Origin: an uncultured Methanomassiliicoccales archaeon
Lineage (GTDB): Archaea; Thermoplasmatota; Thermoplasmata; RBG-16-68-12; JAJISG01
Length of the DNA: 64,000 nt
Assembly (NCBI GenBank): GCA_964348155.1
Contig: CAYGBN010000002.1
Span: 3,520-67,519 of the forward strand
Reading direction: 5' to 3'
In this document: piece after piece, positions 2,524-60,069 of the stretch
How positions within the stretch are numbered: position 1 is the stretch's first letter
How the letters are laid out: each line of letters starts with the position of its first letter
Position numbers and translations under genes: made by a program
The notes under the pieces: model-generated
The model's database searches: none
Seen by the model: the letters and a program-made list of their open reading frames with translations, nothing else
What the model was told of the DNA's origin: nothing

Positions 2524-2656
2524 TCTCGTAGACCTCGTCGCAGGCAGGACAGAAGAGTTCCCCCTCCATAATCTCGTCCTCCTCCACAGCGACGCGGAGC
2601 TCCAGGTCCCCCTTGCACACGGGGCAGCAGAGGATGTCCATGAGATCCCGCTTCAT
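2480..2656 (-). CDS. Trm112-like small zinc-ribbon protein (58 aa)
   Basis: Minus-strand translation MKRDLMDILCCPVCKGDLELRVAVEEDEIMEGELFCPACDEVYEITDGIPNLLPPDLR, with the Trm112 signature (CPxC…C…C…DGIPNLL). Not in the ORF track (below 60 aa). Converges on and overlaps the tsr3 3' end by about 44 nt. Confidence 0.6.
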   Translation of the reverse strand: MKRDLMDILCCPVCKGDLELRVAVEEDEIMEGELFCPACDEVYEITDGIPNLLPPDLR

Positions 2657-2739
2657 GCGGGAGGGGACACCCGGGGGCGTCGCATAAACCCTTCGCTGGG
2701 GTCCCAGAAGCGCTGGGAAAACCGATATATAGCCGGCCC

Positions 2740-8700: not shown

Positions 8701-9228
8701 GTGGACGTGGACATCCTCCAGGTTCGGCGCATCGACCTCCGTTTGGCCGCCCAACCCCCCACCCTCTCTCCCGAAGCCCTGGAGCTCCCCGTGGAGCTGG
8801 TCAATCCCGGGAACGGCCCGGACGTCTACAACGTGATCCTCACGAACCCGCAGACCCTGGAGACCCAGGGTTGGCGAGCCGAGCTCCAGGTGGACGCCGA
8901 GGGGAGGGGGACCGCCGCGGAGGGACTGGCGGTCGCGGCCAGCGAGACGCGTGTCGTCACCCTCCGGCTGGAGGTCGTGGGGGCCGTGGGGCCCACCCGG
9001 GCCCTCCTGCGGGCCTTCTCCCAGGACGACTCCAGGGTGGAGACGTTGCTGGAGGTCCCCGTGGTCTTCCCGTCCCTCTCCATCCCCGTGGAGGACGTGG
9101 TCCTGGACGGCCCCAACGTCCGTTTGGGGGCCCCTTCCTTCCCCGTGTTCCTCTACGGGTCCCTGGCCGCCGCGGCCGCCCTCGTGGCCATCCTCCTCCT
9201 CACACGCCGCCGGAGGTCGCGTCGATGA
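2740..9228 (+). CDS. aglB: AglB/STT3 oligosaccharyltransferase (N-terminal ~900 aa) fused to a ~1250-aa C-terminal array of carboxypeptidase-regulatory-like/CARDB beta-sandwich repeats, with a C-terminal TM anchor
   Basis: Multi-TM N-terminus and the WWDYG catalytic motif (FLSWWDYGFEAIEEGRHPTVADNF). About 10 repeats of the G.Y…L.PG.Y.V type follow (GDYQVLMPSGEVRV, GVYEIAGLLPGDYSVVLL, GDYALHLPKGLYRVWAL, and others). There are two CARDB-like segments (RNTGNVDDRYGM…, VNPGNGPDVYNV…). The C-terminus is …VAILLLTRRRRSRR. Confidence 0.85.
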   Translation: MSLAEPGGGVTDEETFQKRLNFALVLGGIFALALFIRSFFVYDLALRDFLLSGGSDAFYYRWTIDHIVTTGTHLLRDGMLNYPLGMNNPRPPVYGWSVSIVGMMLGYLQGSLELGIAQSFLFSTAVWGALTIFPTYFLGRDIFGRRAGLVGAFFLALMPAHIQRSPLSNGDHDALVLFFVVTAFYFFLRALRELRQEEWVTRWTSPRAVVRGLRQLLLGNRRTILFSVMAGTAVAAVALTWQGWAYVPVVIMAYFIVQLLVHQVRNEDPLGVLLAFTVTLGTGVLLAAPYYVATGFVRTWFDIPLILFVASIGLGLLFTVFHRLPWVLVIPPVLLGFTGGLAIASFYSPAVANALTSGFGYFAPNKVFETIAEAQPPELSQAILSFGAVAYYLAIFGIGWMAIQFVRRPRADYLFALAWSAAAIFMAMSAVRFIFNASPAFALTSAWITVLLVERLGFEQLRRTVTASGGSRLTALRKGVKARHVAGAAFVALLLVLPNVWYGVDAAIPFERKAELDQQVYNAIPAPLQPGGYQEGSLFYFGAFGYNLPMKNTYFPQAWEWFRTQDAEVFPLTDRPAFLSWWDYGFEAIEEGRHPTVADNFQNGFEYAGHFLLAQSENEGIAVLNVRLLHGDLVEHGGALGSDVQAILLAHGLEPDLVRDVLERPTIYIPIIKADPDRFGQWDAQISRRNARVIYLKALLTETLDLDLQAALYRQLRMATGHSVDYFAVDSRLVPFSGSNTGIFYAPVKLTDHRTAELAGLRSVPVDFYRLLAETTDGRTFELQDVPPAAQIANVRIVYTEMFYNSMLYRIFFGQKGSDVGLEDEGLPAIAPPLDGQTPLHGYMLKHFQLAYRTAYYNPHPPQEVLNFTEEWTAVGLFEAQDLQEQIAAGEAVGTVDVSPSVALRQGIVVLRFYDGAILQGRVTAEDGRPLEGVRITVLDEEGIPHDTEFTDAQGDYQVLMPSGEVRVVASTGDLIGQSRTGSTLLGDVTLFVRKDQAARVPQDRDGDGRLDYQVRQDFTVPASTLRGVVFADGNRNAGREGGEGGRGGLGGEVRDGDGNVAGAGITGADGVYEIAGLLPGDYSVVLLRDDSQLEEEDVTLILGQATTHDLDLPAGHLLGTLRDEYGLPAVGGVVDIVEDATGRRWTVPVDEEGAFDAAGLVEGNYTIQGFLGARESLPERVRIPRGLNASRDLVAKPLGAVEGRIFVAFQPAPHASVWLQPRKIPTPVALQADAEGRFQASLPVGTYDAYALHYRAAEPHSFLGVLTVAEGAVQTWDIFLQPAVHVSGRVTLADAGEPGVSVTFAQGEASRTATTGDTGDYALHLPKGLYRVWALHPEGQYVASHSLGGTARLDLRLAEADSAEGRVFYDRNGNGTWDPGEGVEGVRLQFVEEGGVAFRLDAGAEGTYMVSLLPGTSYTLKVEEAGFLPLSLGPFTSVTFLPQTNLELRPEPVDVDGTLVPLDALDLEGTPVAFAPLGDGAEAAEATADASGAFVVDLLPGLYAVEVDAPEDGDEAVRIQLPEVRTLRIPVGKGNTTLAVEVVKRVQLNGSLEVAGGPMQGALLLQGPEELEVSVDGNYTVLLRPGNYTLFGGAFAGGLPYVLLERLSVTAPTTFNASLTPAAQVDGRVTVEGQAPPAAMDLTFLRTDGASLTLRTDAQGGYEAILAPGNYTVSLAWQGVDGVDGPLRFVRYSLSQEVALEAEEVRTLDLPVVRTLENATLEGRVLLGGMPASAQVTFEAANATAMDASLVTGGTFTVALAPGRYNVYVFRETGKTVSLSSLLVQPGTSNEVTLLLESGYRVAGIVSLPDGSRTTTTLTFAAEASVNVTTDAAGVYEAYLPAGTYALAARVQRTERGVPVEYSLEEEFVLVASTTRNLQLARRDDPAVTLAWDVQQRATVSAGSVVDYTLTLRNTGNVDDRYGMTASVPGWTFDFKPRRVTLPFGQDNEAVVEVRITTPPDALVEHPSLVVEAASLLGTGSRDLLSVDVDILQVRRIDLRLAAQPPTLSPEALELPVELVNPGNGPDVYNVILTNPQTLETQGWRAELQVDAEGRGTAAEGLAVAASETRVVTLRLEVVGAVGPTRALLRAFSQDDSRVETLLEVPVVFPSLSIPVEDVVLDGPNVRLGAPSFPVFLYGSLAAAAALVAILLLTRRRRSRR

Positions 9229-9992
9229 AAGCACGCGCTCTCGTCCCGCTGCTCCTCCTTCTCCCCCTCCTCCCCTGGGGAGTGCAGGGCCAGGGGCCCG
9301 TCGCCGTCTTCATCACCGCGCCGGACGCCGCGGGGACGGGGGACACCATCGTGGTCAACGTGACGGCGGCCGGAGGGCCTGCGGAGGAGGGGGGGACCTA
9401 CGAGCTGCGGGCCTTCCTCCGGGGGCCCGGCGACCTGACGGGGGCCTCCCCGGTGGAGGAGGGCCCGCTCCAGGAGAGCTCGGAGAACAACACGTTCTCC
9501 TTCAACGTGACCATGCCCCTGGAGGAGCAGGAGGTGGAGCTCGTGGTGGTGGTCAATTCCACGAAGGATGACACGTGGGTGGAGGGCGAGGCCACGAAGC
9601 GCATCAGGGCCCTGGTCCCCCTGCGCATCTCCGCGCGGGTGGTGAACACGGGCTCCGTGGAGGTGCGGAATGTGCCCGTGTACCTCTACCTGGACGGGAC
9701 GCTGGTGGACGAGACCGCCCTCGTCGTTCTGGGACCCTCGTCGTCGGTGACGGTGAGCTTCCGCTACCTTCCTGTGAACCTCGCGCCGGGGTCCCACACC
9801 CTGGAGATCCGCGTGGACATCAACGGGGACGGCGTGGTGGACCCGGCCCTGGGAGAGGTGTTGCGGCGGGTGACCTTCGTAAGGGAGGCGGAGCCCATCA
9901 ATCCCCTGTGGATCATCCTGGGGGCGGTGGGGGCCTTCGTGGCGGCCCTCTTCGTCGGGGGCTACATCCGGCAGCGGCGGCGCGGGCGCTAG
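9225..9992 (+). CDS. Signal-peptide protein with a CARDB-like domain and a C-terminal TM/basic anchor; start overlaps the aglB stop (ATGA)
   Basis: MKARALVPLLLLLPLLPWGVQG signal peptide. CARDB-like segment RVVNTGSVEVRNVPVYLYLDGTLVDETALVVLGPSSSVTVSF. C-terminal …WIILGAVGAFVAALFVGGYIRQRRRGR. The ATG at 9225 overlaps the aglB TGA at 9226-9228. Confidence 0.55.
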   Translation: MKARALVPLLLLLPLLPWGVQGQGPVAVFITAPDAAGTGDTIVVNVTAAGGPAEEGGTYELRAFLRGPGDLTGASPVEEGPLQESSENNTFSFNVTMPLEEQEVELVVVVNSTKDDTWVEGEATKRIRALVPLRISARVVNTGSVEVRNVPVYLYLDGTLVDETALVVLGPSSSVTVSFRYLPVNLAPGSHTLEIRVDINGDGVVDPALGEVLRRVTFVREAEPINPLWIILGAVGAFVAALFVGGYIRQRRRGR

Positions 9993-10627
9993 TCCTCGCC
10001 CAGCTTCTCCAAGCGCCGCTCCAGCTCGTAGCTCCGAAGGGCCACGGCCACCTCTCCCCTGGTCTTCTCCAGGAGGCCGCGAGCGATGTCCTGCTTCCGC
10101 TTGACGGCCACCAGCGCCGTGGGGTGGTGGAAGCGCATGAGGCCGTCGTAGAGGACCTCCATCGCCTCCAAGGCCTCCATCGCCCGAGGCACCTCGCCCT
10201 CCTTCAGGCACTCCAGGGCGTGCCGTCGCAACTCCCCCACCACATCCCCCAGCCCCAGAAGGTAGGCGTTGGGGGTGACGGCTAGGTCTCGGGGGGTGGG
10301 GAGGGGGGTCCCGTGGATGAGGCTCTGGGCCACGGCCGCCTCCGTCATGTCCTGCTGGGCGTTCTCCACGAAGCCCGCGTGGTAGATGTCCGGGTGGTCC
10401 TTCAGCAGGCTCCGGAGCCTGAGGGCCTCCTCCCGGGCCTTCTCTAGGGGCCCGCCGACGTCGCCGTCGCCGTGGAGGGCCCCTAGGGCGCCCACGGACA
10501 GGCGGGCCACCGCCCGACTGGACTTCAGGGCGAGCTCCCGCACGGTGTCCTTCTCCTCCAGCACCGCCTCGACCTCGTCCAGAATCGCCTGCAGTTCCCT
10601 CCTCCGCTTCTCGTCCAGCAGGGGCAC
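9989..10627 (-). CDS. Translin/TRAX-family protein
   Basis: C-terminal half AYLLGLGDVVGELRRHALECL…LYDGLMRF…LVAVKRKQDIARGLLEKTRGEVAVALRSYE resembles the TRAX/translin conserved block (YLLGIADLTGELMR … KKL..L…L.K.E). GTG start at 10625-10627, 2 nt after the purD stop. The upstream part of the 315-aa track ORF is Arg-rich artefact overlapping purD. Confidence 0.55.
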   Translation of the reverse strand: MPLLDEKRRRELQAILDEVEAVLEEKDTVRELALKSSRAVARLSVGALGALHGDGDVGGPLEKAREEALRLRSLLKDHPDIYHAGFVENAQQDMTEAAVAQSLIHGTPLPTPRDLAVTPNAYLLGLGDVVGELRRHALECLKEGEVPRAMEALEAMEVLYDGLMRFHHPTALVAVKRKQDIARGLLEKTRGEVAVALRSYELERRLEKLGED

Positions 10628-37805: not shown

Positions 37806-38092
37806 GGTCCGCAGCCCGGGCCTCCCCTCGGCCGCGAGAGTGATAAGCCTATCCGTACGATTCTTACAGGCGATAAGGTGGCTGCCGGGGGATAGCGGGG
37901 CCTGGACGCTCCGTCCGAGGCTCACGGCACGTGCCGCCCTCGGACCTTTGAACCAGGGATCTCCGGGTTATGAGCCCGGCGGGATTTTAGGCGCTGTTCA
38001 CCGGAAAGGACCGGGATCCAGGGTTTCCTAGCTACCCCACCCCGCTTCCCCTCTCCCACCGACGCGGGGAATATTAAGGTATCGGGGCCACC

Positions 38093-38428
38093 CTATGACA
38101 GCAGCTTCCGGAAGCGGAGGGTGTCCTCGAGGGACGCCTTCACCCTGAGCTTTCCCGTGGCCAGAGCCTTGAAGGGGGCGATCTCCCGGGCGATGACGCC
38201 CCGGAGAACCTCCTCGTCGGCGGTGATGGTCAGATCGGCGTCGCCCTGCGCCTGGCCCTCCTCCAAGTCCACGATCTGGCCCTCCTCCAGCCGCATGTTA
38301 TACGTGGCCCTGTCCGTCACCACCTGAATGCGCTTCACCATGCCCGCCAGCTCCTCTTGCATGCGAGGGTTCGTTCGGGCCCGCTCGTTGAAGCGCCGGA
38401 TGAGGTCCTCCAGAAGGTCGCGCACGCT
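38093..38428 (-). CDS. SCP2 (sterol carrier protein 2-like) domain protein
   Basis: …NPRMQEELAGMVKRIQVVTDRATYNMRLEEGQIVDLEEG…KALATGKLRVKASLEDTLRFRKL. SCP2 fold. Start assigned to an internal GTG. The rest of the track ORF is artefact overlapping rnhB. Confidence 0.6.
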   Translation of the reverse strand, partial: SVRDLLEDLIRRFNERARTNPRMQEELAGMVKRIQVVTDRATYNMRLEEGQIVDLEEGQAQGDADLTITADEEVLRGVIAREIAPFKALATGKLRVKASLEDTLRFRKLLS

Positions 38429-39071
38429 ACCACTCCGTGAGCTTTCGCAGCTTGGCCCGGGCCAGCAGGCGCTGGGAGGTTCTCCACGCCCGCCGGGCGT
38501 GGGGGGGCACGTCCCCTTGCTCCCGCACCCATGCCCGCAGGAAGGCCACGGTCTGGGGGTCGTGGGCGTAGCCGCTCCCCACGGGCTGCCCAAGCTCCGC
38601 ACCGATGCGCTCCATCTCCTCGTCCCGCCGAACCTTCGCCACGATGGAGGCGGCAGAGACCACCGGGTGCCGTTCGTCCGCCCCATGCTCCGACCGCAGC
38701 GGGAGGTCGTAGCCCACGCCCCGGAGGATCTGGCGTCGAAATCGGGCCTCGGAGGTGTCGCAGCAATCCACCACGACCTCGTCAGGGGCCAGGGCCCGAA
38801 TGACGTCCGCGAAGAGGGTCGCCTCCAAGAGGTTGAGGGAGGTCGCGTCCATCCCTCGGTCCAACTCCGCCGCGGAGACCACGCGAACCTGGCACTCCGC
38901 CACCGCCTGGACCTCCTGGGCCAGGCCTCGTCTTCGCTGGGGAGTCAACCGCTTGGAGTCCCGAACGCCCAGAGACCGCAGGGAGCCGGGGTCCGTGGTC
39001 AGGACTCCCGCCACGACCAAGGGCCCCAGGACGGGGCCGCGTCCCGCCTCGTCGACGCCCAGAACCCTCAG
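38427..39071 (-). CDS. rnhB: Ribonuclease HII
   Basis: …LRVLGVDEAGRGPVLGPLVVAGVL…DSKRLTP…VDCCDTSEARF…SAASIVAKVRRD. RNase HII catalytic residues are present. The N-terminus begins at an in-frame CTG (39069-39071) that overlaps the upstream gene's TGA (CTGA). No ATG/GTG/TTG is available. Confidence 0.8.
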   Translation of the reverse strand: MRVLGVDEAGRGPVLGPLVVAGVLTTDPGSLRSLGVRDSKRLTPQRRRGLAQEVQAVAECQVRVVSAAELDRGMDATSLNLLEATLFADVIRALAPDEVVVDCCDTSEARFRRQILRGVGYDLPLRSEHGADERHPVVSAASIVAKVRRDEEMERIGAELGQPVGSGYAHDPQTVAFLRAWVREQGDVPPHARRAWRTSQRLLARAKLRKLTEW

Positions 39072-40339
39072 GGGGCCACCTCCCGACGCAGGCCCTCCAC
39101 ATCCTCCCGCAGGGCCGCGACGTCGACTCCGGTGAGTGCGCCGTTCTCCACCACGATCCGCCCCTCCACGACGACGTCCCTCACCTGACCTCCCTCCGCC
39201 AGATACACCAGGTAGGATAAGACCTCCGACGGATCGCGGGGGGGCCGCCGGCCCCGGAGATCGAGGACGACCACATCGGCGACGGTGCCCGCCTGGAGGG
39301 ATCCCCCCTCCAACCCCAGGACCTTCGCCCCGCCCCGGGTGCAGAGGTCCAGCACGAGGGAAGCCGTGGCGGCCCCCGGGTCCCACCGCGCGGCCTTGTG
39401 CTGGCCTGCGCAACCCCGCATGTGCTGGAAGAGGTCCAGGGTGCCGACCTGGGCGGGGGAGGCCGTGCCCAGGGCGACGGAGACGCCCTCCGCCCGCACC
39501 TCCGGCAGGGCCAGGCTGCCTCCCGTTCCACCCATGGCGTCGGCCAGGGGGCAGTGGACGACCTGCGCCCCGGATCGGCCGAGGGCGCGAATCTCGTTCA
39601 AGGTGAGCCAGACGGCGTGAAGGGCCAGGAGACGGGGGGAAAGGAGGCCGCGGGCCTCCAGCCAGGCTCCGGGCCGGTCGCCCGTGGCACGCTGGAAGCG
39701 GTAGACCTCGCGGCGGGTGCGGGCCAGGGGCAGGCACCATCGCAGGCCCCGATCCTCCGCGAAGGCCGCCACCTCCTCCAAGAGGGCAGGGTCCTCCGGG
39801 TTCGCGACCCCCACCGAGGGTTCCACACGGTCCCACGCCTGTACGCGGGCAAGCCCCTTGGCGCACCCCTCCAGCTCTTCGGGGGAGGCCACCTCCCAGC
39901 AGGGGAAGCCTCGGCTCCCCACCTGCGTCACGGCGCGGGCCAGCTCCTCCGCCCCTGGGAAGAGGTCGAGAAAGGACGTCGTTCCCCCAAGGAGCATCTC
40001 CGCAGCGGCCGCGGCCGCGGCGAGCTCCACGTCCCGACGGGTGAGGTTCTCCCGCAGAAGGCGGCGGCGCTCGCGCAGGTCCTCCGGAGGAAGGTCGCGG
40101 GGCGGGCCCAGCAGGAGGTCGACGGCCCGCGTGTAGGCGTTGACGAGCCCCGGGAGCACGAGGCATCCCGCGGCGTCCAGGACGTGGTCCGCGCCCTGGT
40201 CCGCGCCCCGTTCGGGTCCGGCGACCTCCGCCACGCGCCCGCCCTCCACGTAGAGGTTGCCCTCCACCACCCGGCGGCCGTCGTCCTGGGTGACCAGAAG
40301 GCCCCCCTTCACCAGGAGGGACACGCCCGGAGCCATCCC
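39068..40339 (-). CDS. Amidohydrolase-family deaminase/chlorohydrolase (MtaD/SsnA/TrzA-like)
   Basis: MAPGVSLLVKGGLLVT…VLPGLVNAYTR (metal-binding)…HAVWL…HCPLADAM. Amidohydrolase_1 fold. Confidence 0.7.
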   Translation of the reverse strand, partial: GMAPGVSLLVKGGLLVTQDDGRRVVEGNLYVEGGRVAEVAGPERGADQGADHVLDAAGCLVLPGLVNAYTRAVDLLLGPPRDLPPEDLRERRRLLRENLTRRDVELAAAAAAAEMLLGGTTSFLDLFPGAEELARAVTQVGSRGFPCWEVASPEELEGCAKGLARVQAWDRVEPSVGVANPEDPALLEEVAAFAEDRGLRWCLPLARTRREVYRFQRATGDRPGAWLEARGLLSPRLLALHAVWLTLNEIRALGRSGAQVVHCPLADAMGGTGGSLALPEVRAEGVSVALGTASPAQVGTLDLFQHMRGCAGQHKAARWDPGAATASLVLDLCTRGGAKVLGLEGGSLQAGTVADVVVLDLRGRRPPRDPSEVLSYLVYLAEGGQVRDVVVEGRIVVENGALTGVDVAALREDVEGLRREVAP

Positions 40340-40393
40340 CGCCTCTCTATTTGAAGGCCGGGCCCGGGCAAGGTTTAACTCCGCCGGCCTTTG

Positions 40394-41327
40394 GGTGCGC
40401 GTGGACTTTCTCCGGGAGGTGCGCGCCCTCCTGCGGCAGGTCCCGCGGGGACGCGTGACGAGCTTCAAGGCCGTGGCCGAAGCGCTGGGAGATGTCCGGG
40501 CCGCGAAGGCGGTCCGACAGGTCCTCCGCGAGGCGCGTCCCGAGGGGTGGCACCGCGTCGTGCGGGCCGACGGCGGCCTCTCCTTCCCGGAGGCCCGCGC
40601 GCCCCTCCAGGAGGAGGGGGTGCCCGTGACCGACGGGCGGGTGGAGGGCTTCACGGCACGGAAGCTAGACGCCCTCGCCTCCACGCACCCCCTCCGGGCC
40701 CTCCGGGAGGAGCAGCGCAACCTGGCTCGTCGCGTCCGCCTGGAGGACGCCCCCGAGGAGGGGGGAACGGTGGCGGGGTTCGACGTCGCCTACGAGGGGG
40801 AGCGGGCCTACGCTGCGGCGGTTGTCGTGGCCCCGGACAGCCTGGAGGTGCTTCAGCAAGTCGCCCTCACCACCCCGGTCACCTTCCCCTACGTGCCCAC
40901 ATACCTGGCCCATCGCGAGTGGGGGCCCCTCGCCCGCTGCTACGAGCGCCTTGAGGATCCCCTGGCCCTCCTCCTGGTTGACGGCAACGGAATCCTCCAT
41001 CCGGCGCGCTTCGGCATCGCCTGTCTCGTGGGCGTCCGCACGGGACGTCCCACCGTGGGGGTGGCCAAGAGCCTCCTCCTGGGGGAGGTGGCAGGGGCTC
41101 CGGGGCCCGGGGAGGCGGCGGAGGTGCGGCACCAAGAGGACATCCTGGGCTACGCCTTTCGGCCGGCCGAGGGAAAGCCCATCTACATCTCCCCCGGCCA
41201 CCGCATTAGCCTGGCCACGGCTCTGGAGCGCGTCCGAGGGCTCTGTCGCCAGCGCATCCCGGAGCCCCTCCGCCTGGCCCACCGCGCCTGCAGCCAGCTG
41301 CGCCGCGAGGGGGCGCAGGGGTCTTAA
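40394..41327 (+). CDS. nfi: Alkyltransferase-like (MGMT DNA-binding domain with Trp in place of the active-site Cys) fused to endonuclease V
   Basis: N-terminus …VTSFKAVAEALGDVRAAKAVRQVLREARPEGWHRVVRADGGLSF is MGMT-fold, with WHRVV where Ogt has PCHRVV. C-terminus GFDVAYEGERAYAAAVV…PYVPTYLAHREWGP…LLVDGNGILHPARFGIACLVGV…PTVGVAKS is EndoV (catalytic D/E/D/H/K present). GTG start at about 40394-40400. Confidence 0.75.
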
Positions 41328-47372: not shown

Positions 47373-47714
47373 ATGCCCCGCCGACGGAGGGGGCTGGAGA
47401 GGCGGATCGCCCGGGAGCGCATGGAGCTCCTCTTCGAGCTTGCGGAGGAGGAAGGGTTGCGCGGGCGGAAGGCCCGGGCCGACCGGTACGCCCGGCGGGC
47501 CCGACGCATCGGGATGCGGTACAACGTTCCCCTCCCCAAGCCCCTTCGGCTCCGCCTCTGTCGCCGCTGCGGGAGCCACCTCCTTCCCGGGGAGACGGCG
47601 ACCGTCCGCCTGCGGCCATCCCGGGTGGTGGTCACGTGCCAGGCGTGCGGAACGGTGTACCGCCACCCGTTCCTGCGGGAGGCCAAGGCGCGCCGGGCGT
47701 CTAGTACGCCGTAG
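47373..47714 (+). CDS. RNase P protein component Rpp21 (Rnp4)
   Basis: …RIARERMELLFELAEEE…RYARRARRIGMRYNVPLPK…LCRRCGSHLLPGETATVRL…VVVTCQACG. Rpp21 Zn-ribbon family. Confidence 0.8.
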   Translation: MPRRRRGLERRIARERMELLFELAEEEGLRGRKARADRYARRARRIGMRYNVPLPKPLRLRLCRRCGSHLLPGETATVRLRPSRVVVTCQACGTVYRHPFLREAKARRASSTP

Positions 47715-50428: not shown

Positions 50429-50620
50429 TCACGTCTCTTGCGCCTTCTTCAACCGGGTGACGTACCCTGCGATTCGGTTGCGCATCTTGGCGGTGGTTAC
50501 GTCCGTCAACTCCCCCACGCGCTCCTTGTTGTGCTGGAAGTCCTCGTTGAACTGCTCCGGATAGAGCCTCGTGAGCTCCAGCGCGACGCGCTTGATGTAC
50601 GTGGGTCGGATGCTGCCCAT
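50429..50620 (-). CDS. rps17e: 30S ribosomal protein S17e
   Basis: MGSIRPTYIKRVALELTRLYPEQFNEDFQHNKERVGELTDV…. 63 aa. TATA-like CCTTTATC lies about 40 nt upstream. The N-terminal extension of the track ORF is artefact. Confidence 0.85.
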   Translation of the reverse strand: MGSIRPTYIKRVALELTRLYPEQFNEDFQHNKERVGELTDVTTAKMRNRIAGYVTRLKKAQET

Positions 50621-52768: not shown

Positions 52769-53471
52769 TCAGCCCCGCCCATAGAGACCGTATCCGACGA
52801 CCAGCGCCCAGATGGGGGGAAGGATCGCGATGGGGGCAAAGCCAACAGCCAGCACCAATGCGGCCGATGACGGGCCAAGGCCGATTGTGGCCGCAGCTAC
52901 GGATGACGCCAAGACGCCCGCCAGCCCCACGATGCCCCCTACCACGCTTAGGTAGGCCGTCCCGCGCCCGAAGATGCCCTTGCGCATGACCAGACCCGCG
53001 ACCAGCATGTGAAGAAAGAGGAGGGAGAAGCGTACGAAGAAGGCGGAGCCTAGCGTGCCACGAACAAGGTCGGTCGCCGTCACATAGGCGGCTTGCTGTG
53101 CCTCACTCGTCGCGGCCATGTAGCCATCACTAAGCACGACCTCAGACAGGACCAGGGGGGAGATCCAGGTGACCTGTATGGCGGCGAGGAGGCCGACCGT
53201 GACTGCCATGAGCATGTAGGTCTTGTTGACCTCCCGCATGGCCACGTAGAGCGCCAGCACGCCTGGCATCAGCAAGAGGAATCCCAGCAGCAACACCCCG
53301 TGGATCTGGAAGAGCAGTCTCCGTTCCGCTATGATCTGCAGGCCCTCCTCGGGACCGGCCGCCCCCCCGACGAGGTAAAACAAGGGGAAGTCCAGGACGT
53401 GGATTGCTGCCATGACCACAAGGGACAAGCCGCCCGCCTTGTAGAGGCCCTTCCAGGCTGGATCCACATCC
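52769..53471 (-). CDS. Hypothetical polytopic membrane protein
   Basis: About 6 predicted TM helices. No recognisable family. Confidence 0.4.
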
Positions 53472-53600
53472 ATGGCTAGGCCCGGCACCCCAATGCGCGT
53501 CCCCACAAGAAGCTATGGAGAGAGGGTGCCGAGGTATGATGCCGTGGCCCGCCGGACCTACAGGACCACGGTGCGGAGGTGCGGGGGTCTTCTCGGTCCC

Positions 53601-54560
53601 CTAACTCTCTCGGATCGCCGGCGGAAGGATACAGGCCTCGGGGTCCGCCCCCGGCCGCATCCGGACGAAGGCGGGCGCCCGCAGCTTCAGGTCCGGCGTG
53701 AACTGGAGGTACTTCACGCGGCACACGAGCCGGGGCTCCAGCCACGCCTTGACCCCCGGCATGACCTCCGGGGTGTCGGGGAAGGGGCACGGGCCCTCAA
53801 GGGGGCGGGTCCGATCCACAATCTCCGCCATCAAGGCCTCGTCGAAGCCGGTCCCCACGCTCCCCACGAACCGCAGCGCGGGGCCGTCGTACACCCCCAG
53901 GATGAGAGAGCCGAAGTAGGGCTCCCGCCACCCCTTGCCCACCGTGAGCCCGCAGACTACGCAGTCCAAGGGCTTGTAGGTCTTGATCTTCAGCCAGAAA
54001 TCCACCCGCTTCCCGGGGAGGTAGGGCGTGCCCCGTCGCTTCGCCATGATGCCCTCCAGCCCCCGCTCCTCCGCCACCTGGAAGAGGGCGCGGCCGTCCC
54101 CGCGCACCGCCTCGCTCAGGTAGACGTTGTCCTGCGGCTCCACCACCTCTTGGAGCAACGCCTGGCGCTCCTCCAGGGGGCGCTTCAGCAGGCTGCGGTC
54201 GTTCCAGTGCAGGAGGTCGAACACGACGTAGGTGGCCGGGAACTGCTTCGCCAGGAGGCCCGCCTTGAACTCATCCAGGGCGTGCTCGCGCTGCTGGAGC
54301 TTGACGAAGTCCGGCCGGCCCTCGTGCATGACCACGATCTCCCCGTCCAGGATCGCCTGCCCCTTCACCACGGGCCGGATCTCGGGGTACCGGTAGGCAA
54401 TCTGGTTGAGCCGCCGGTTCTGGAAGCGGCACTCCTCGTCCACGAAGGCGACGGTCCGCGTGCCGTCCCACTTCACCTCGAAGGACCACGCCTCCCCGTC
54501 GAAGGGGTCGTCCCGGGACCGGGCGAGCATGGGGTGGATGGGACCACGGGGCAGGGGCAT
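53601..54560 (-). CDS. ATP-dependent DNA ligase, LigD ligase-domain type (NHEJ-associated)
   Basis: …GEAWSFEVKWDGTRTVAFVDE… (KxDG adenylation motif), …EGIMAKR…, …DFWLKIK…. 319 aa, with no N-terminal DNA-binding domain. Its ATG overlaps the Ku stop. Confidence 0.8.
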   Translation of the reverse strand: MPLPRGPIHPMLARSRDDPFDGEAWSFEVKWDGTRTVAFVDEECRFQNRRLNQIAYRYPEIRPVVKGQAILDGEIVVMHEGRPDFVKLQQREHALDEFKAGLLAKQFPATYVVFDLLHWNDRSLLKRPLEERQALLQEVVEPQDNVYLSEAVRGDGRALFQVAEERGLEGIMAKRRGTPYLPGKRVDFWLKIKTYKPLDCVVCGLTVGKGWREPYFGSLILGVYDGPALRFVGSVGTGFDEALMAEIVDRTRPLEGPCPFPDTPEVMPGVKAWLEPRLVCRVKYLQFTPDLKLRAPAFVRMRPGADPEACILPPAIRES

Positions 54561-54561
54561 G

Positions 54562-55365
54562 TCACGAGGGCTTCGTCACGGCCTCCAGACTGGCCTTCAG
54601 CGCGGTCATGAGGTCCTCCGGCGACTCCCGCTCCGCCGCCGTCGGCACCTCCACCTCCTTCCCCTCCACCTTGGCCTCGATGAGCTGCAGGAGGGCCTCC
54701 CGGTAGCGGTCCTGGAACTGGCCTATGTCGAAGGGGATCGTCTGCGCCTTCACGAGGTCCACGGCCAGGTCCAGCTCCGGCTCCGAGACCTCCACCGGCT
54801 TCTCCAGGGGGACGTCCGGCGGCTGACGGACCTCGTCCTCGTAGTAGAGGGTCGAGAGCACCAGAACGCCCTCCCGGGGCCGGACGGTGACGACCTGCTC
54901 CTTCTTCCAGATGGAGGCCTGGGCCACGGCGACCTTGTTCGTCAGCTCCAGGGCCTGGCGAAGGAGCTCGAATGCCTTCACCGCCGACTCGGCGGGCGCC
55001 AGGTAGTAGCTTGAGTCGTGGAGGAGGGGGTCCACCTCCTCCCGCTCCACGAAGCCCACCACCTCCAGGGCCTTGCTGCTCTCCAGGGGCACCCTCTCGA
55101 AGTCCTCCTCCGTCAGGACGACGTACTTGCCCTTCGTGTACTCGTACCCCTTCCGGATCTCCTGGTAGGGGACCTGCTCCTCACAGGTCGGGCAGTAGTA
55201 GGGGCGCTTCAGGGGGGTGCCGCACTCCGCGTGGAGGCTCCGGAAGGCCACGTCCCGCCGTTGGGTGGCGGTGAAGAGCTTGACCGGGATGTTGACCAGG
55301 CCGAAGGTGACGGCCCCCGACCAGATGGCCCGCGGCATCATGGGAGGCTGTCCAAAGATGGCCTG
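54562..55365 (-). CDS. ku: Ku protein (bacterial/archaeal-type NHEJ end-binding protein)
   Basis: MPRAIWSGAVTFGLVNIPVKLFTATQRRDVAFRSLH… Canonical prokaryotic Ku N-terminus and core. Start assigned to the internal ATG. The upstream part of the track ORF is artefact. Confidence 0.85.
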   Translation of the reverse strand, partial: QAIFGQPPMMPRAIWSGAVTFGLVNIPVKLFTATQRRDVAFRSLHAECGTPLKRPYYCPTCEEQVPYQEIRKGYEYTKGKYVVLTEEDFERVPLESSKALEVVGFVEREEVDPLLHDSSYYLAPAESAVKAFELLRQALELTNKVAVAQASIWKKEQVVTVRPREGVLVLSTLYYEDEVRQPPDVPLEKPVEVSEPELDLAVDLVKAQTIPFDIGQFQDRYREALLQLIEAKVEGKEVEVPTAAERESPEDLMTALKASLEAVTKPS

Positions 55366-55427
55366 GGTTAAAGGCGTTGCCCCGCACGACGGCGGATAAG
55401 TGAGAATGGAAGCCTCATGGTATAAGT

Positions 55428-55452: not shown

Positions 55453-58400
55453 ATGCGGGAGGCGAGGACTGGAACGAGGCTTACGCCGCTGCATGTGGCG
55501 GCCCTGATGGGCGTCACCCTCAGCCTGTTGGGGGCCACGGCGGCGGTCATGAACGCGGGGCCCGTGGGGGTCCTGGAAAACGGCGAGGCCCCCCTGGAGG
55601 CCGTGGCGGGTCCCGACGTCACCGTGGAGATGGGGGAGGAAGTACCCTTCGATGCCACGGGCTCCACGGGCGGGGAGGACCTCCTGTACCTCTGGTTCTT
55701 CGGGGACGGGGAGGCGGAGCTGGAGGGCCTGCCCTCCTACAGCACGGAGCCCGTGACCGCCTTCACCTACACGAAGGAGGGCGTGTATGAGGCCCTCCTC
55801 CTGGTGGTGGGGGAGGACGGGGCCTCGGACTGGGACACCCGGGTGATCACCGTGCGCAACGTCCTGCCCACCCCCCACATCGCCGCGGACGGGGAGGCCA
55901 CGGACGAGATCCTGGAAGTCCAGGAGGACCAGGTGGTCACCTTCAGCGGTGCCGCCAGCGAGGACACGGAGCCCCTAACGTACCGCTGGACCTTCGGAGA
56001 CGGCGAGACGACGGAGGGCGTGGAGGTGGAACACGCCTACGCCCAGGAGGGCGCCTATGTGGCCCGGCTGGAAGTCGAGGACGCCCAAGGGGCCCGGAAC
56101 CGCGCTCCCCTCGTCGTCCTGGTGGGCAACGTCGCCCCCACGGCGGTGGCGAGCTTCCCCGCGGAGGCGGGGGAGGACGAGTCGGTGGTCTTCGACGCCT
56201 CCGGCACCACGGACACCCCGTCGGACGTGGAGCACCTCACTTACATCTGGGAGCTTGGCGGGGTCCGTAAGGTCGGGCCCGTCGTTGAGCACGCGTTCGG
56301 CCTGGGGGGGACGCACGCCGTCCTCCTGGTGGTGGTCGATGACAACGGCGCCGCATCCCTTGTGGAGGGGAGCATCGAAATCCTGAACGCGGCGCCGACG
56401 GCCGCGATGGCGCAGGTCCTGGTGGCGGAGGAGGGGTCCACGACCTTCTTCGACGCGTCCGACTCCGGGGACACCCCCTCCGACACGCCCCTCCTCCAGT
56501 TCGCGTGGGACTTCGACGGGGACGGGACACCGGAGACGCAGGGTGCCAACGCCCCTCACGTGTTCCCCGACGACAGCCCCCATCCGGTGGAGCTGACAGT
56601 GATGGACGACGACGGGTCGACGGCCGCCCTCCTGCAGGAGGTGGAGATTCTGAACGTCGCCCCTCACGCCGGGATCGTCGACGTCGCCCGCGTGGTCACG
56701 GTGAACCTCACGGTGGCGGGGACCCCGGGCCACCGGGTGGAGATCGTTCTCTTCCAGGACGGGGAGGTCATCGCCTCAGGGCTTGCGATCCGGGAGCCGG
56801 GAGACCCCAAGGCCCAGAGCATCGTGTTCGAGGACCTGGACTTCCCGCTCGGCCACGGGTACGCGGCCCTTGTATCGTACCTCCCCCTTGAGGACGAGGA
56901 GGGCGCGAACCCCGCGCGGCTCAACCTCAGCTTTGGGGATGGCTCCTACGTCCGCCTCCACCACACCTTCAACGTGCAGCATGAGGACACCCATACGTGG
57001 GAGCTGGACCTGGATCCCCATCTCACCAGAGTTCGGCTGCTCGGCACGGTGTACGACCCGGGGGCGGACGACCTGGTCTTGCGGTGGGGCTTCGGCGACG
57101 GCACGGCGATGGAGGTCGGCCATGCCGCGGCGGGTCTCCCCACCCGTTGGGTGAGCGAGGTCTACCACACCTTCCCCCTGGGTGACTTCTCCGTGGAGTT
57201 CCGGGCAACCGACGACGACGGGGGCACGGGAGCGGACGAGATGCCCGTCCACGCCGGGGAGGACGCCTTCGTCGTGGGCAACCTGCGGCCCCGCCTCTTC
57301 CTCGCCGACCTCATGGAGGTCCAGGAGGACCAGGAGGTCCTCTTCGTGGCCGACGCCCTGGACGCCGACGGCGAGGTGGGGAGCTTCCGCTGGGACTTCC
57401 GCGACGGGGAGGTTGCCGAGACGGAGGAGGCGTTCCACGCCTTCACCCAGGCAGGGACGTACCACGTCCTCCTCACGGTGACGGACGACGAGGGAGAGGC
57501 GACCGTGGACTCCATAGAGGTGCGGGTCTCCAACCCCGCTCCCGAGCCGGCCATCGCAACGGAAGGGACGGCCGTGGAGGATGCGGTGCTGGAGTTCAGC
57601 GCCGTTGGCACCGAGGACAACCCGTCGGACCTGGCGTCGCTTCGCTATTACTGGACGTTCGGAGACGGGTCCGTCGCTCCCGGTCCCGAGGTGACGCATC
57701 GCTACGCGAGGGCGGGTCCGTACACTGTCACGCTGTACGTGCAGGACGACAACGGCGCCTCGGCGGAGGCTTCCGTGGACGTCGTCGTGGAGAACCTCCC
57801 ACCCGTTGCAGGTCTCGAGGGGCCCGTTGAGATCTTGGTCGAGGATCCTGCCCTCTTTGTCAGCACCTCTTCGGATACGCCGACGGACGCAGCGTTCCTT
57901 GAGCTGCTCTGGGCGCTCCCCGATGAGGGGGAGGGGGAGGGCTCTCGACTCCTGCACACGTTCTTCGAACCCGGCGTCTTTGATGTGGAGCTCACGGCCA
58001 CGGACGACAACGACGAGGTCGACGGTGCCACCGTGGAGGTGGAGGTCCTGAATCGCGCCCCCGTGGCGCACATCCCCTTCAGCACTCTCCACGTCTACGC
58101 TCACGGCGGCACGGTGAGCTTGCGCGGGTTCGGCTTCGACACCCTCCTCGACGAGGCGTCCCTCGTCTTCGGCTGGGACCTCGGCGACGACACCCTGGTG
58201 GAGGGAGCAGAGGTGACCCATACCTACGCGGCCTCCGGCGTGTACGAGATCGCCTTTGGGGTCATGGACGCGCACGGCGCGTTGGGCCTGGATCATGCCG
58301 AGATCTTGGTCGTCCTCGATGCGGACGGCGACGGCCTCCCGGACCTCTACGAGACGGCGGTCCTGGGAACGGATCCGACCAACCCCGACACGGACGGGGA

Positions 58401-58467
58401 CGGCGTCTGGGACTCGGTGGAGATACTCCTGCTGGAGACCCACCCCCTCGTGCCTCCGGAGGGGTAG
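55453..58467 (+). CDS. Secreted/surface PKD-repeat protein (~8 PKD domains) with C-terminal thrombospondin type 3-like Ca-binding repeats
   Basis: N-terminal TM/signal (LTPLHVAALMGVTLSLLGATAAV). Repeated WxFGDG PKD signatures (YRWTFGDGETTEG, FAWDFDGDGTPE, LRWGFGDGTAME, FRWDFRDGEVAE, YYWTFGDGSVAP, FGWDLGDDTLVE). C-terminal DADGDGLPDLYE…DPTNPDTDGDGVWD. Confidence 0.8.
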   Translation: MREARTGTRLTPLHVAALMGVTLSLLGATAAVMNAGPVGVLENGEAPLEAVAGPDVTVEMGEEVPFDATGSTGGEDLLYLWFFGDGEAELEGLPSYSTEPVTAFTYTKEGVYEALLLVVGEDGASDWDTRVITVRNVLPTPHIAADGEATDEILEVQEDQVVTFSGAASEDTEPLTYRWTFGDGETTEGVEVEHAYAQEGAYVARLEVEDAQGARNRAPLVVLVGNVAPTAVASFPAEAGEDESVVFDASGTTDTPSDVEHLTYIWELGGVRKVGPVVEHAFGLGGTHAVLLVVVDDNGAASLVEGSIEILNAAPTAAMAQVLVAEEGSTTFFDASDSGDTPSDTPLLQFAWDFDGDGTPETQGANAPHVFPDDSPHPVELTVMDDDGSTAALLQEVEILNVAPHAGIVDVARVVTVNLTVAGTPGHRVEIVLFQDGEVIASGLAIREPGDPKAQSIVFEDLDFPLGHGYAALVSYLPLEDEEGANPARLNLSFGDGSYVRLHHTFNVQHEDTHTWELDLDPHLTRVRLLGTVYDPGADDLVLRWGFGDGTAMEVGHAAAGLPTRWVSEVYHTFPLGDFSVEFRATDDDGGTGADEMPVHAGEDAFVVGNLRPRLFLADLMEVQEDQEVLFVADALDADGEVGSFRWDFRDGEVAETEEAFHAFTQAGTYHVLLTVTDDEGEATVDSIEVRVSNPAPEPAIATEGTAVEDAVLEFSAVGTEDNPSDLASLRYYWTFGDGSVAPGPEVTHRYARAGPYTVTLYVQDDNGASAEASVDVVVENLPPVAGLEGPVEILVEDPALFVSTSSDTPTDAAFLELLWALPDEGEGEGSRLLHTFFEPGVFDVELTATDDNDEVDGATVEVEVLNRAPVAHIPFSTLHVYAHGGTVSLRGFGFDTLLDEASLVFGWDLGDDTLVEGAEVTHTYAASGVYEIAFGVMDAHGALGLDHAEILVVLDADGDGLPDLYETAVLGTDPTNPDTDGDGVWDSVEILLLETHPLVPPEG

Positions 58468-58479
58468 GGGCTTTGGAGG

Positions 58480-60069
58480 CTAAGGGCGCAGGCGCCCCTT
58501 ACGCGTGAACTGCCGGTCGTAGAGGTCCTTGAGCCTGTCCAGGGTGTCCACGTCCTCCGGCGTCCGGTCCTCCCGCACCCCGGTGATGCGGGCGAAGCGG
58601 AGGGCGAAGCCCGAGTCGTAGTGAGGGCTTCGCTGGATCTCGTTGTACGCCACCTCCACCACGACCTCGGGCCGTACGCGGACGACGTAGGGATCTTCCC
58701 GCACCTTCAGCCTCAGGAGCGCCTCCGTCATCTCGCGAAACTCCGCGTCCGTCAGCCCCTTGAACGTCTTCCCGATCATGTGGAAGGCCCCCGCCTCGTC
58801 TCGCACCCCCAGGTGGTAGTTGCTGAGCCACTCCTTCCGCCGGCCGTGACCCCATTCGGCCGCCAGGATGACCACGTCCAGCGTCTCGGCCCGCTTCACC
58901 TTCAGCCACCTCTTCCCCCGCTTCCCGGGCGTGTAGGGGCTGGCGGGGTCCTTGGCCATGAGGCCCTCGTGGCCCGCTTCCAGGGCCTTCTGCATGAACG
59001 CCTTCGCGGTGGTCGCCGTGGGCTCCGTGAGCCGCGGGACCAGCAGCTTCTTGGGGACGGCCTCCTCCAGGGCCCTCCAACGCTCCCGGTGCGGGCGGTC
59101 GATGAGGAGCGTCCCCTCGATCACCAGCGCGTCGAAGAGGTACAGCTCCAACGGGATGCGGCGCCGCAGGGCCTCGATGTCGTGGACCCGTCGGAACCGC
59201 CGCATGAGGTCCTGGAAGGGCAGCGGACGTCCTCGCTTGTCCACGGCCACCACCTCCCCCTCCACCAGCAGGTCCCCCCCGCGGAAGGCGGCCGCCCACT
59301 CCACCACCTCGGGGAGGCTCTCCGTCACCTCCGTCAGCCGCCGGGTGAAGACCTTGACTCGACCCGCCTTCCGGTGGATCTGGATGCGCGCTCCGTCCAG
59401 CTTGTACTCAAGGACGGTCCCCTCCCCATGCTCCTGGAAGACCGCCTCCAAGTCGTCCGCCATCTCCGCCATCATGGGCTTGATGGGGGTGAAGAGCCGC
59501 AGCCGCTGTGCCTCCAGCCCCTTTGCCCCCTTTGTCAGCGCCACCCGGGCGGTCTCCCCGAGGTCGCCCAGGAGCATGTTCGCCCGCCGCACCGCGTCCA
59601 GCTCTGCCCCCGAGGCGTCGGCTAGGGCCTCCAGGAAAACCCCCTCGTTCACCCCGATGCGCATCTCGCCGCCGATGGCCCGGAGGAGAAGGTCCCTCTC
59701 TCCCTCGGAGGCCCGGGCGAACAGGGACTGCAGGAGGCGCCGCTTCTTCCGCACGGAGTCCCGGCCCGTGGCGGCGGCGATGGCCCCGAAGGTCTGGCGG
59801 ACCTTGGGGATCGTGAGCTCCTCGGGGACGAGGGTGGCCTGGCGGAAGGAGCGCAGGGCCTGGCTCACGGTGGCCCACCCCACGTTCAGCGCCTGGGCCT
59901 CGGACTTCGGCAGGACGCGGCCCGTAAGCAGAAGGACGGCGGGCGCGACCTCCGCCGGCGGCAGGCCCTCAAGGAACGCCGCCAGCAGCGCCCGCTTCTT
60001 CAGGCGACTTCGGGTGCCCTTCAGCTCCCGGGAGAGATCCACCAGCGCCCGCAACGGCGTCCCGCTCAC
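58480..60069 (-). CDS. lig: ATP-dependent DNA ligase (replicative, Lig1-type with N-terminal DNA-binding domain)
   Basis: DBD plus adenylation domain (…VLEYKLDGARIQIH… KxDG motif) plus OB domain (…EGLMAKDPASPYTPGKRGKRWLKVK…). Confidence 0.9.
   Translation of the reverse strand: MSGTPLRALVDLSRELKGTRSRLKKRALLAAFLEGLPPAEVAPAVLLLTGRVLPKSEAQALNVGWATVSQALRSFRQATLVPEELTIPKVRQTFGAIAAATGRDSVRKKRRLLQSLFARASEGERDLLLRAIGGEMRIGVNEGVFLEALADASGAELDAVRRANMLLGDLGETARVALTKGAKGLEAQRLRLFTPIKPMMAEMADDLEAVFQEHGEGTVLEYKLDGARIQIHRKAGRVKVFTRRLTEVTESLPEVVEWAAAFRGGDLLVEGEVVAVDKRGRPLPFQDLMRRFRRVHDIEALRRRIPLELYLFDALVIEGTLLIDRPHRERWRALEEAVPKKLLVPRLTEPTATTAKAFMQKALEAGHEGLMAKDPASPYTPGKRGKRWLKVKRAETLDVVILAAEWGHGRRKEWLSNYHLGVRDEAGAFHMIGKTFKGLTDAEFREMTEALLRLKVREDPYVVRVRPEVVVEVAYNEIQRSPHYDSGFALRFARITGVREDRTPEDVDTLDRLKDLYDRQFTRKGRLRP

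Follow-up and report, generated by a model that had tools for sequence, protein, structure and literature searches.

A Ku gene and a ligase-only LigD homologue in a probable two-gene end-joining operon of an uncultured, high-GC Thermoplasmata archaeon

A 64-kb stretch of DNA from an uncultured Methanomassiliicoccales archaeon (contig CAYGBN010000002.1), referred to here as the window and used for all coordinates, carries on its minus strand a gene for Ku directly followed by a gene for a stand-alone ATP-dependent DNA ligase of the NHEJ (non-homologous end joining) type. The Ku gene (54562..55341) encodes 259 amino acids, from an ATG at 55341 to a TGA stop codon at 54564-54562, and the ligase gene (53601..54560, minus strand) encodes 319 amino acids that comprise nucleotidyltransferase (NTase) and OB domains only. 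The two open reading frames (ORFs) are adjacent and non-overlapping, with one base between them, at a TGAcATG junction (54558..54564, minus strand) consisting of the Ku stop codon, the spacer base at 54561, and the ligase ATG at 54560-54558. A preliminary description of this locus had recognized the Ku gene but placed its start at 55365, which is a CAG codon of the stop-to-stop ORF lying 24 nt upstream of ATG 55341; the ATG is taken as the start because no earlier start codon is compatible with the family model.

The product of the first gene matches Pfam Ku (PF02735; 1.8e-51) and the NCBIfam model TIGR02772 (Ku_bact), the latter with 292.7 bits against a curated cut-off of 150 and over model positions 1-259 of 259, such that the whole beta-barrel core is covered. 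A 259-residue protein 100% identical to the window Ku is recorded in an NCBI assembly. The closest solved structures are bacterial, namely Bacillus subtilis Ku (9vnq, E 2.6e-56), on which residues 5-226 are aligned, and Mycobacterium tuberculosis (Mtb) Ku (8v53, E 1e-45), on which residues 2-255 are aligned, and a homodimeric, DNA-end-binding ring is predicted from homology to these solved rings. The minimal C-terminal motif of Ku, which has the pattern D-L-hydrophobic-x-x-L-x-x-S-hydrophobic, is kept as DLMTALKASL, the counterpart of DLLAKLEASV in Mtb Ku. It is followed by seven residues and then the end of the protein, and there is no extended basic C-terminal arm. The number of residues after the motif is 3-7 in 73 Ku proteins of the archaeal type, and 19-35, rich in lysine and arginine, in 37 full-length neighbors of the bacterial type. 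In addition, the window Ku has a cysteine pattern, C-x12-C-x2-C (HAECGTPLKRPYYCPTCEE), at residues ~36-52 (55200-55250, minus strand), which is a candidate metal site; the CxxC part is common to B. subtilis and Mtb Ku, and the last cysteine is replaced in one of the close relatives considered below (L005).

The product of the second gene has Pfam matches to DNA_ligase_A_M (1.7e-33) and DNA_ligase_A_C (3.2e-20) and to no other relevant domain. It exceeds the cut-off of the equivalog-domain model TIGR02779 (NHEJ_ligase_lig; 238.4 bits, cut-off 227.75), and falls short of those for LigC (PRK08224, 172.8 vs. 296) and Lig1 (dnl1, 119 vs. 218). The best structural relative is the ligase domain of Mtb LigD (1VS0, E 2e-37), with residues 20-309 aligned. 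Motifs I, III, IIIa, IV, and V and the OB motif VI are all found, with the strings KWDG (residues 30-33), LDGE, VVFD, EGIMAK, WLKIK, and LRAPAFVRMR. Lys30 of motif I, encoded at 54471..54473 on the minus strand, is the predicted AMP-accepting lysine and aligns with the KWDG of Mtb LigD; together with other key motif residues, it is invariant in all 120 sequences of the archaeal ligase-only clade described below. Because the conventional LigD of bacterial NHEJ is a multidomain protein, and only A_M and A_C are found within the 319 residues, the window ligase is homologous to LigD's ligase domain and is no LigD in the strict sense.

The spacing of stop codon, one nucleotide, and ATG at the junction is kept in 11 of 11 close relatives, and it probably couples the translation of Ku and ligase. 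Furthermore, a Ku gene followed by a ligase-only gene is found in five further archaeal genomic contexts, co-directional each time, with a spacer of 4 nt (L081-83), 6 nt (L085/86), 1 nt (L088, on an 826-kb contig), or 5 nt (L089), or with an overlap of 4 nt (L084, a metagenome-assembled genome [MAG] of Methanocellales). Upstream of Ku lies a TATA-box-like element, CCTTTAAC (55367..55374, minus strand), located 27-34 nt before the ATG, and CCTTT(A/T)AC is the best-conserved block among 10 aligned Ku upstream regions of relatives. This box is a putative archaeal promoter, and the transcript made from it, on which Ku and ligase are probably carried together, would be leaderless or have a very short leader. 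The anatomy proposed in the preliminary description, that is, a Ku, a ligase-only LigD homologue of 319 residues at exactly 53601-54560, and their organization as a tightly coupled two-gene unit, is borne out by these observations.

Overall, we consider it probable, at about three chances in four, that this chromosomal two-gene operon is a minimal archaeal NHEJ system that has been vertically inherited in a high-GC, uncultured clade of Thermoplasmata. The operon is real and probably functional, and its most likely role would be the Ku-dependent end joining of chromosomal double-strand breaks, with end processing either unneeded or supplied in trans. We infer the mechanism, including the biochemical activities, the contact between Ku and ligase, the promoter, and the role in vivo, from bacterial and Methanocella systems. 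Ku and ligase would be co-transcribed from the TATA-like promoter as a leaderless mRNA, with the stop-1 nt-start junction coupling their translation. A Ku homodimer would thread onto both ends of a double-strand break and bridge them, whereupon the Ku core and the minimal C-terminal motif would recruit and stimulate the stand-alone ligase, which would be adenylated at Lys30 and seal each strand. Because the operon encodes no polymerase or phosphoesterase, only compatible or blunt ends would be joined directly, or else end-processing enzymes with genes elsewhere would be borrowed, for example a stand-alone polymerase (Pol) or phosphoesterase (PE), the replicative primase PriSL, or a polymerase involved in repair. 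In vivo, such a system may repair breaks when no sister copy is available.

Several points weigh against this reading. LigD-type ligases have a preference for a 3'-ribonucleotide, which the Pol domain normally adds, and a truly polymerase-free system may therefore be inefficient. The isolated ligase domain of Mtb LigD alone seals nicks and not double-strand breaks (PMC9638933). The margin by which the window ligase exceeds the TIGR02779 cut-off is narrow, at about 10 bits, and the promoter and the leaderless transcript are proposed solely on conservation and spacing. The trees described below are neighbor-joining (NJ) distance trees built on samples of top matches, most members of which carry no taxonomic label. 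Finally, the clade is known from sequence alone, and the scope of the search for Pol and PE was the 64-kb window and loci extending ±10 kb.

In that search, the six-frame ORFs of the window and of 18 archaeal loci were queried by tblastn with seven full-length bacterial LigDs whose domains had been verified, by hmmsearch --max with profiles for bacterial Pol and PE and one for archaeal Pol, the latter made from 120 Methanocella-like proteins, and by phmmer with the PE protein of Methanocella paludicola (Mpa). No LigD Pol or PE domain was detected in the window (best E > 2), which extends to the whole 64 kb the preliminary statement that no such genes adjoin the pair. Across the window and the 18 loci, only the two ligase genes were matched, with nothing else below E = 0.2, and in none of six archaeal contexts does a gene with LigD_Prim-Pol (PF21686) or LigD_N (PF13298) lie within ±10 kb of Ku and ligase.

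It is possible, although on balance unlikely, that the organism has a complete four-activity NHEJ system as in M. paludicola, with the Ku-ligase operon supplemented by stand-alone Pol and PE genes elsewhere in the genome; the Ku-ligase module would then not be "minimal" at the cellular level. The components of M. paludicola are indeed dispersed, as Ku lies at a distance of more than 10 kb from an operon of PE, Lig, and Pol, and stand-alone archaeal PE proteins have been documented (PMC3082917). Stand-alone Pol domain (PolDom) proteins are also very numerous in metagenomes, as a query with M. paludicola Pol yielded 8000 candidates. However, the best 120 of these 8000, which share 59% identity or more with Mpa Pol, include none labelled Thermoplasmata, which is weak evidence against such a split arrangement, and the failure to find Pol or PE near the pair in six independent archaeal contexts speaks in the same direction. 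In addition, the window ligase is just 36% identical to the Pol-linked Mpa ligase, and the window Ku lacks the extended tail that would bind POL.

In Mtb, the extended Ku tail contacts the POL domain, whereas the isolated ligase domain, which the extended tail actually hinders, needs no more than the Ku core and the minimal C-terminus for its stimulation (PMC9638933). Because the tail thus serves POL while the core and minimal C-terminus serve the ligase, a tail-less Ku together with a Pol-less ligase would be an internally coherent pairing, and it would fit a Ku adapted to a polymerase-less partner.

A quite improbable alternative is that the pair has no role at double-strand breaks, the ligase acting as a back-up enzyme for nick sealing or base-excision repair in the manner of LigC, and Ku acting mainly as an apurinic/apyrimidinic (AP) or deoxyribose phosphate (dRP) lyase or as an end protector. 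AP-lyase activity is an attribute of bacterial Ku (PMC4245934), the nick-only activity of the isolated Mtb ligase domain mentioned above would suit such a role, and a second, three-domain ligase is available for replication. However, the window ligase passes the NHEJ model (238.4/227.75) and fails the LigC model (172.8/296), and the linkage of Ku and ligase in an operon is strict in all sampled archaeal contexts, which points to the two proteins working together on DNA ends.

The inheritance of the pair was assessed from synteny, composition, and phylogeny. Eleven loci (L001-L011) from species-level Thermoplasmata relatives, all MAGs, share a collinear block in the order Lig1-[variable slot]-Ku-ligase-3-hydroxyacyl-CoA dehydrogenase (HBD)-enoyl-CoA hydratase (crotonase)-S17e-ABC ATPase, and the Ku-ligase pair is found in this same block in 11/11. 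Identities to the window proteins are 70-81% for Ku, 63-81% for the ligase, and 63-83% for the products of the flanking genes, so that the divergence of Ku and ligase is commensurate with that of the flanking housekeeping genes. GC content is 0.677 for the Ku gene and 0.693 for the ligase gene against a background of 0.680±0.024, and the GC content at third codon positions (GC3) is 0.96 and 0.95, respectively. The z scores for codon-usage log-likelihood, relative to 43 background genes, are +1.6 for Ku and +1.3 for the ligase, that is, on the well-adapted side. As for the features expected of a recent genomic island, composition lies within a z of ±1.7, the pair is present in all 11 relatives, and the neighbors that were examined showed no integrase, phage gene, or other gene for mobility.

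For Ku, an NJ tree was built from 144 sequences, comprising the 120 best database matches and labelled bacterial loci. The clade of the window Ku (17 cluster representatives) has a bootstrap support of 199/200, and the wider clade of archaeal-type Ku (75 cluster representatives) one of 197/200. All labelled members of the latter are archaeal, the labels being Thermoplasmata, "Euryarchaeota RBG_16_67_27", Methanobacteriota, and MAGs of Halobacteria and Methanocellales. The nearest bacterial Ku proteins, labelled Firmicutes or Gemmatimonadales, together with unlabelled proteins of 270-285 residues, are 44-53% identical to the window Ku. The 120 best matches to the ligase are all ligase-only proteins of 305-333 residues and group in a single clade, separate from the ligase domains of bacterial LigDs, which are 31-40% identical to the window ligase. 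By these relationships, both proteins belong to a sizeable archaeal lineage, and the pair appears to be old and vertically inherited within the high-GC, uncultured Thermoplasmata clade.

The preliminary description had regarded the module as likely horizontally acquired and had pointed to a possible bacterial donor and to GC and codon usage as tests. In the sense of a recent or lineage-specific acquisition, this claim is contradicted by the shared synteny, commensurate divergence, host-typical composition, and archaeal clades described above; what was found is largely the situation that would tell against it, with NHEJ common in an archaeal clade that has inherited it vertically. The Ku and ligase-only operon anatomy of its "minimal two-gene NHEJ module" stands, but horizontal acquisition finds no support on any recent timescale. 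Acquisition of the pair from bacteria in recent times is accordingly very improbable and was rejected on composition, synteny, and bootstrapped NJ phylogeny, even though movement of prokaryotic NHEJ genes from one domain to another is known (PMC7719229), the Nitrososphaerales, another archaeal clade of soil, reportedly gained NHEJ from bacteria (PMC7554672), and the closest solved structures are bacterial. Against it stand a synteny conserved in at least 10 species with a divergence equal to that of neighboring housekeeping genes, GC3 and codon usage that are host-typical or better, the nesting of Ku in an archaeal clade, the distance of the best bacterial homologues (at most ~53% for Ku), and the conservation of an archaeal-style promoter element. 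Any transfer between domains would have to be ancient, because of the shared synteny, the commensurate divergence, the host-like composition, the archaeal clades, and the recurrence of the pair in five further contexts. It is possible that an ancient transfer of this kind took place at the base of the archaeal clade, and NHEJ transfers between domains have been proposed in both directions (PMC7719229).

That the pair is cargo of a mobile element or virus, for example with a Gam- or Corndog-like Ku for genome circularization, or has an anti-phage function, is scarcely credible, for although Ku occurs in phages and plasmids (PMC11936186) and a link between mycobacterial NHEJ and antiphage defense has been drawn (PMC12848934), PADLOC gave zero defense-system matches in the window, on which ground membership in a defense system was rejected, and the pair has a host-typical composition and conserved housekeeping flanks (S17e, HBD, crotonase, and Lig1), with no integrase, phage genes, or flanking tRNA seen nearby.

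The system closest in kind is the AP-NHEJ of M. paludicola, which consists of Ku, Lig, Pol, and PE (Bartlett et al. 2013, as cited in PMC7719229, PMC8708640, and PMC4797286). It resembles the window pair in being archaeal and in having stand-alone single-domain proteins, a Ku of the homodimer type, and an NTase+OB ligase of ~320-335 residues. However, in the M. paludicola sequence AP011532 (L087, 8402-10888) the ligase lies in a tight PE-Lig-Pol operon, with a 4-nt overlap between Lig and Pol and no Ku within 10 kb, whereas the window operon consists of Ku and ligase with no Pol or PE nearby. With an identity of only 36%, the two ligases are placed in different sub-lineages.

Bacterial systems of Ku and multidomain LigD (M. 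tuberculosis, B. subtilis, and Pseudomonas aeruginosa) share with the window the Ku core, the minimal C-terminal motif, the NTase/OB fold and motifs of the ligase, and the linkage of the genes. They differ in that the window ligase has no fused Pol (PF21686) or PE (PF13298) domain and the window Ku no extended basic arm, and in the putatively archaeal promoter context of the window genes. Among split NHEJ loci of Actinobacteria, a ligase-only gene of ~327 codons adjoins Ku in Actinomadura, Spirillospora, and Nonomuraea (L013-L047), and ligase-only partners of Ku are therefore not unusual. The "core" NHEJ of Streptomyces likewise has a stand-alone ligase and polymerases (PMC5124664), and the literature places Pol genes elsewhere in the genomes of such Actinobacteria. 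Unlike the window genes, those of the split loci are divergent and not co-directional, and their ligases are 36-40% identical to the window ligase. In many Streptosporangiales, the ligase-only gene of ~327 codons lies divergently beside Ku (~8900-9900, with Ku at 10001). The loci from Chloroflexia, Eisenbacteria, and Saprospiraceae encode multidomain LigDs of 780-955 residues in which the domain order varies between PE-Lig-Pol and Pol-PE-Lig.

Among archaea, a pair of Ku and ATP-dependent ligase in Archaeoglobus was reportedly noted by Aravind and Koonin in 2001. Archaeoglobus is also listed with Ku and LIG (PMC7719229), and is thus another archaeon with Ku and a LigD-type ligase domain; it belongs to another phylum-level lineage. 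In the survey of Sharda et al., Ku was found in 10 of 243 archaea, always alongside a LIG domain (PMC7719229), and NHEJ at the level of a clade has been reported in a soil archaeal group, the Nitrososphaerales (PMC7554672).

More tentatively, the pair may belong to a large, archaeal-specific lineage of Ku→ligase-only operons, so far undescribed as such, with a genuinely polymerase-independent, two-component form of end joining. Such a lineage would be distinguished by a Ku without the POL-binding arm and by a ligase sub-family distinct from the Pol-linked Methanocella ligase, and it might have been the source, rather than the recipient, of Firmicutes-type Ku; taken as a whole, this extended proposal is doubtful. 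The lineage comprises at least 75 Ku and at least 120 ligase cluster representatives, from several Thermoplasmata sub-lineages and from MAGs labelled Methanocellales or Halobacteria. If the proposal is true, NHEJ would be common, and not "extremely rare", in some major archaeal groups of soil and sediment.

Reviews state that Ku occurs in only a handful of archaea and name Methanocella as the sole known case of a complete NHEJ complex (PMC8708640, PMC7719229). An uncultured Thermoplasmata clade with a stable, vertically inherited chromosomal Ku-ligase operon, as seen in the window and its relatives, modestly widens the known distribution of archaeal end joining. The finding involves no new mechanism and no new protein family, and concerns a fairly large clade of an already known kind. 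In addition, a naturally minimal pair, with a tail-less Ku and a ligase lacking Pol and PE, is well suited to asking what the smallest functional NHEJ machine is.

The operon is surrounded by housekeeping genes, in a chromosomal region of a Thermoplasmata archaeon with high GC content. The window has a GC content of ~68%, and the operon neighbors are ordinary metabolic and informational genes; no tRNAs and no Rfam families were found in the window. Archaeal markers include S17e (50429-50620) and the RNase P subunit Rpp21 (47373-47714), which were recognized from their sequences, as well as Cbf5 (with DKCLD, TruB, and PUA domains), and the oligosaccharyltransferase STT3/AglB. An archaeal host, as assumed from the outset, is supported by S17e, Rpp21, Cbf5, and a fusion of MGMT with endonuclease V (EndoV), and by relatives labelled Thermoplasmata or Methanomassiliicoccales. 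This fusion of the DNA-binding domain of O6-methylguanine-DNA methyltransferase (MGMT) to endonuclease V (40254-41327, plus strand), a bifunctional repair protein, is another DNA-repair gene in the window and fits the taxonomy. Fusions of this kind are characteristic of Thermoplasmatales-type archaea and have been described in those of the Ferroplasma/Thermoplasma type.

A separate ligase of the canonical Lig1 type, which the preliminary description had placed correctly at 58480..60069 (minus strand), encodes 529 residues with A_N, A_M, and A_C domains, is presumed to be replicative, and lies outside the operon. The nearest solved structures are the Lig1 enzymes of Thermococcus, Pyrococcus, and Archaeoglobus (E ~1e-113). 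The protein is short, and among NCBIfam models it is matched best by the actinobacterial LigB-type PRK03180, with 538 bits where the cut-off is 641, and not by the haloarchaeal LigA model, which gives 411 bits. Alignments to the archaeal Lig1 structures begin at query residue 67 and at chain residue 93-105, which implies a trimmed N-terminal DNA-binding domain. Lig1 lies near Ku in the closest clade only, where the insert between the two varies. The other archaeal contexts lack this proximity, which is therefore read as inherited synteny and not as an operon. A functional operon link between Lig1 and Ku was accordingly rejected, as the adjacency is confined to the closest clade and the contents of the slot vary.

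The slot between Lig1 and Ku is occupied in the window by a lineage-specific gene for a PKD-repeat protein (55453..58467, plus strand; 1004 residues with 8 PKD repeats), which is divergent from Ku. In most relatives, it holds a gene resembling a multi-pass membrane transporter (e.g., L002, 7879-9336; L005, 8519-9952), which is "MATE-like" by a reading of the sequence with no family search. In L003 the slot is empty (9931-10001 region), and Lig1 and Ku lie 69 bp apart on the same strand. On the other side of the pair, between the ligase and the HBD gene, lies a gene for a DUF4386-like membrane protein (52769..53506, minus strand; 245 residues), for which the Pfam match is below the cut-off. This gene is missing from the syntenic block in all of L001-L011, and among the 43 window genes scored it ranks last both in GC3 (0.80) and in codon log-likelihood (-1.21). 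Because of its absence from the 11 relatives and its poorest codon fit, recent acquisition is more plausible for this gene than for the Ku-ligase pair. The true local novelties are the DUF4386-like gene and the PKD-repeat gene.

Elsewhere in the window, the region 38000-40300 (both strands) has a GC content of 73% and long overlapping ORFs in several frames, including an ORF at 39221-40354 without a Pfam match, so that gene calls there are tentative. An AT-skew spike at 48-49 kb was considered as a special feature and rejected, since it corresponds to two hydrophobic minus-strand ORFs for membrane proteins upstream of the ABC ATPase; these look to be of the ABC-2 type from their translations alone, with no family search. 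Finally, a giant protein of 2194 residues (2644-9228, plus strand) combines an STT3/AglB oligosaccharyltransferase N-terminus with many CarboxypepD_reg, SdrD_B, and transthyretin-like repeats.

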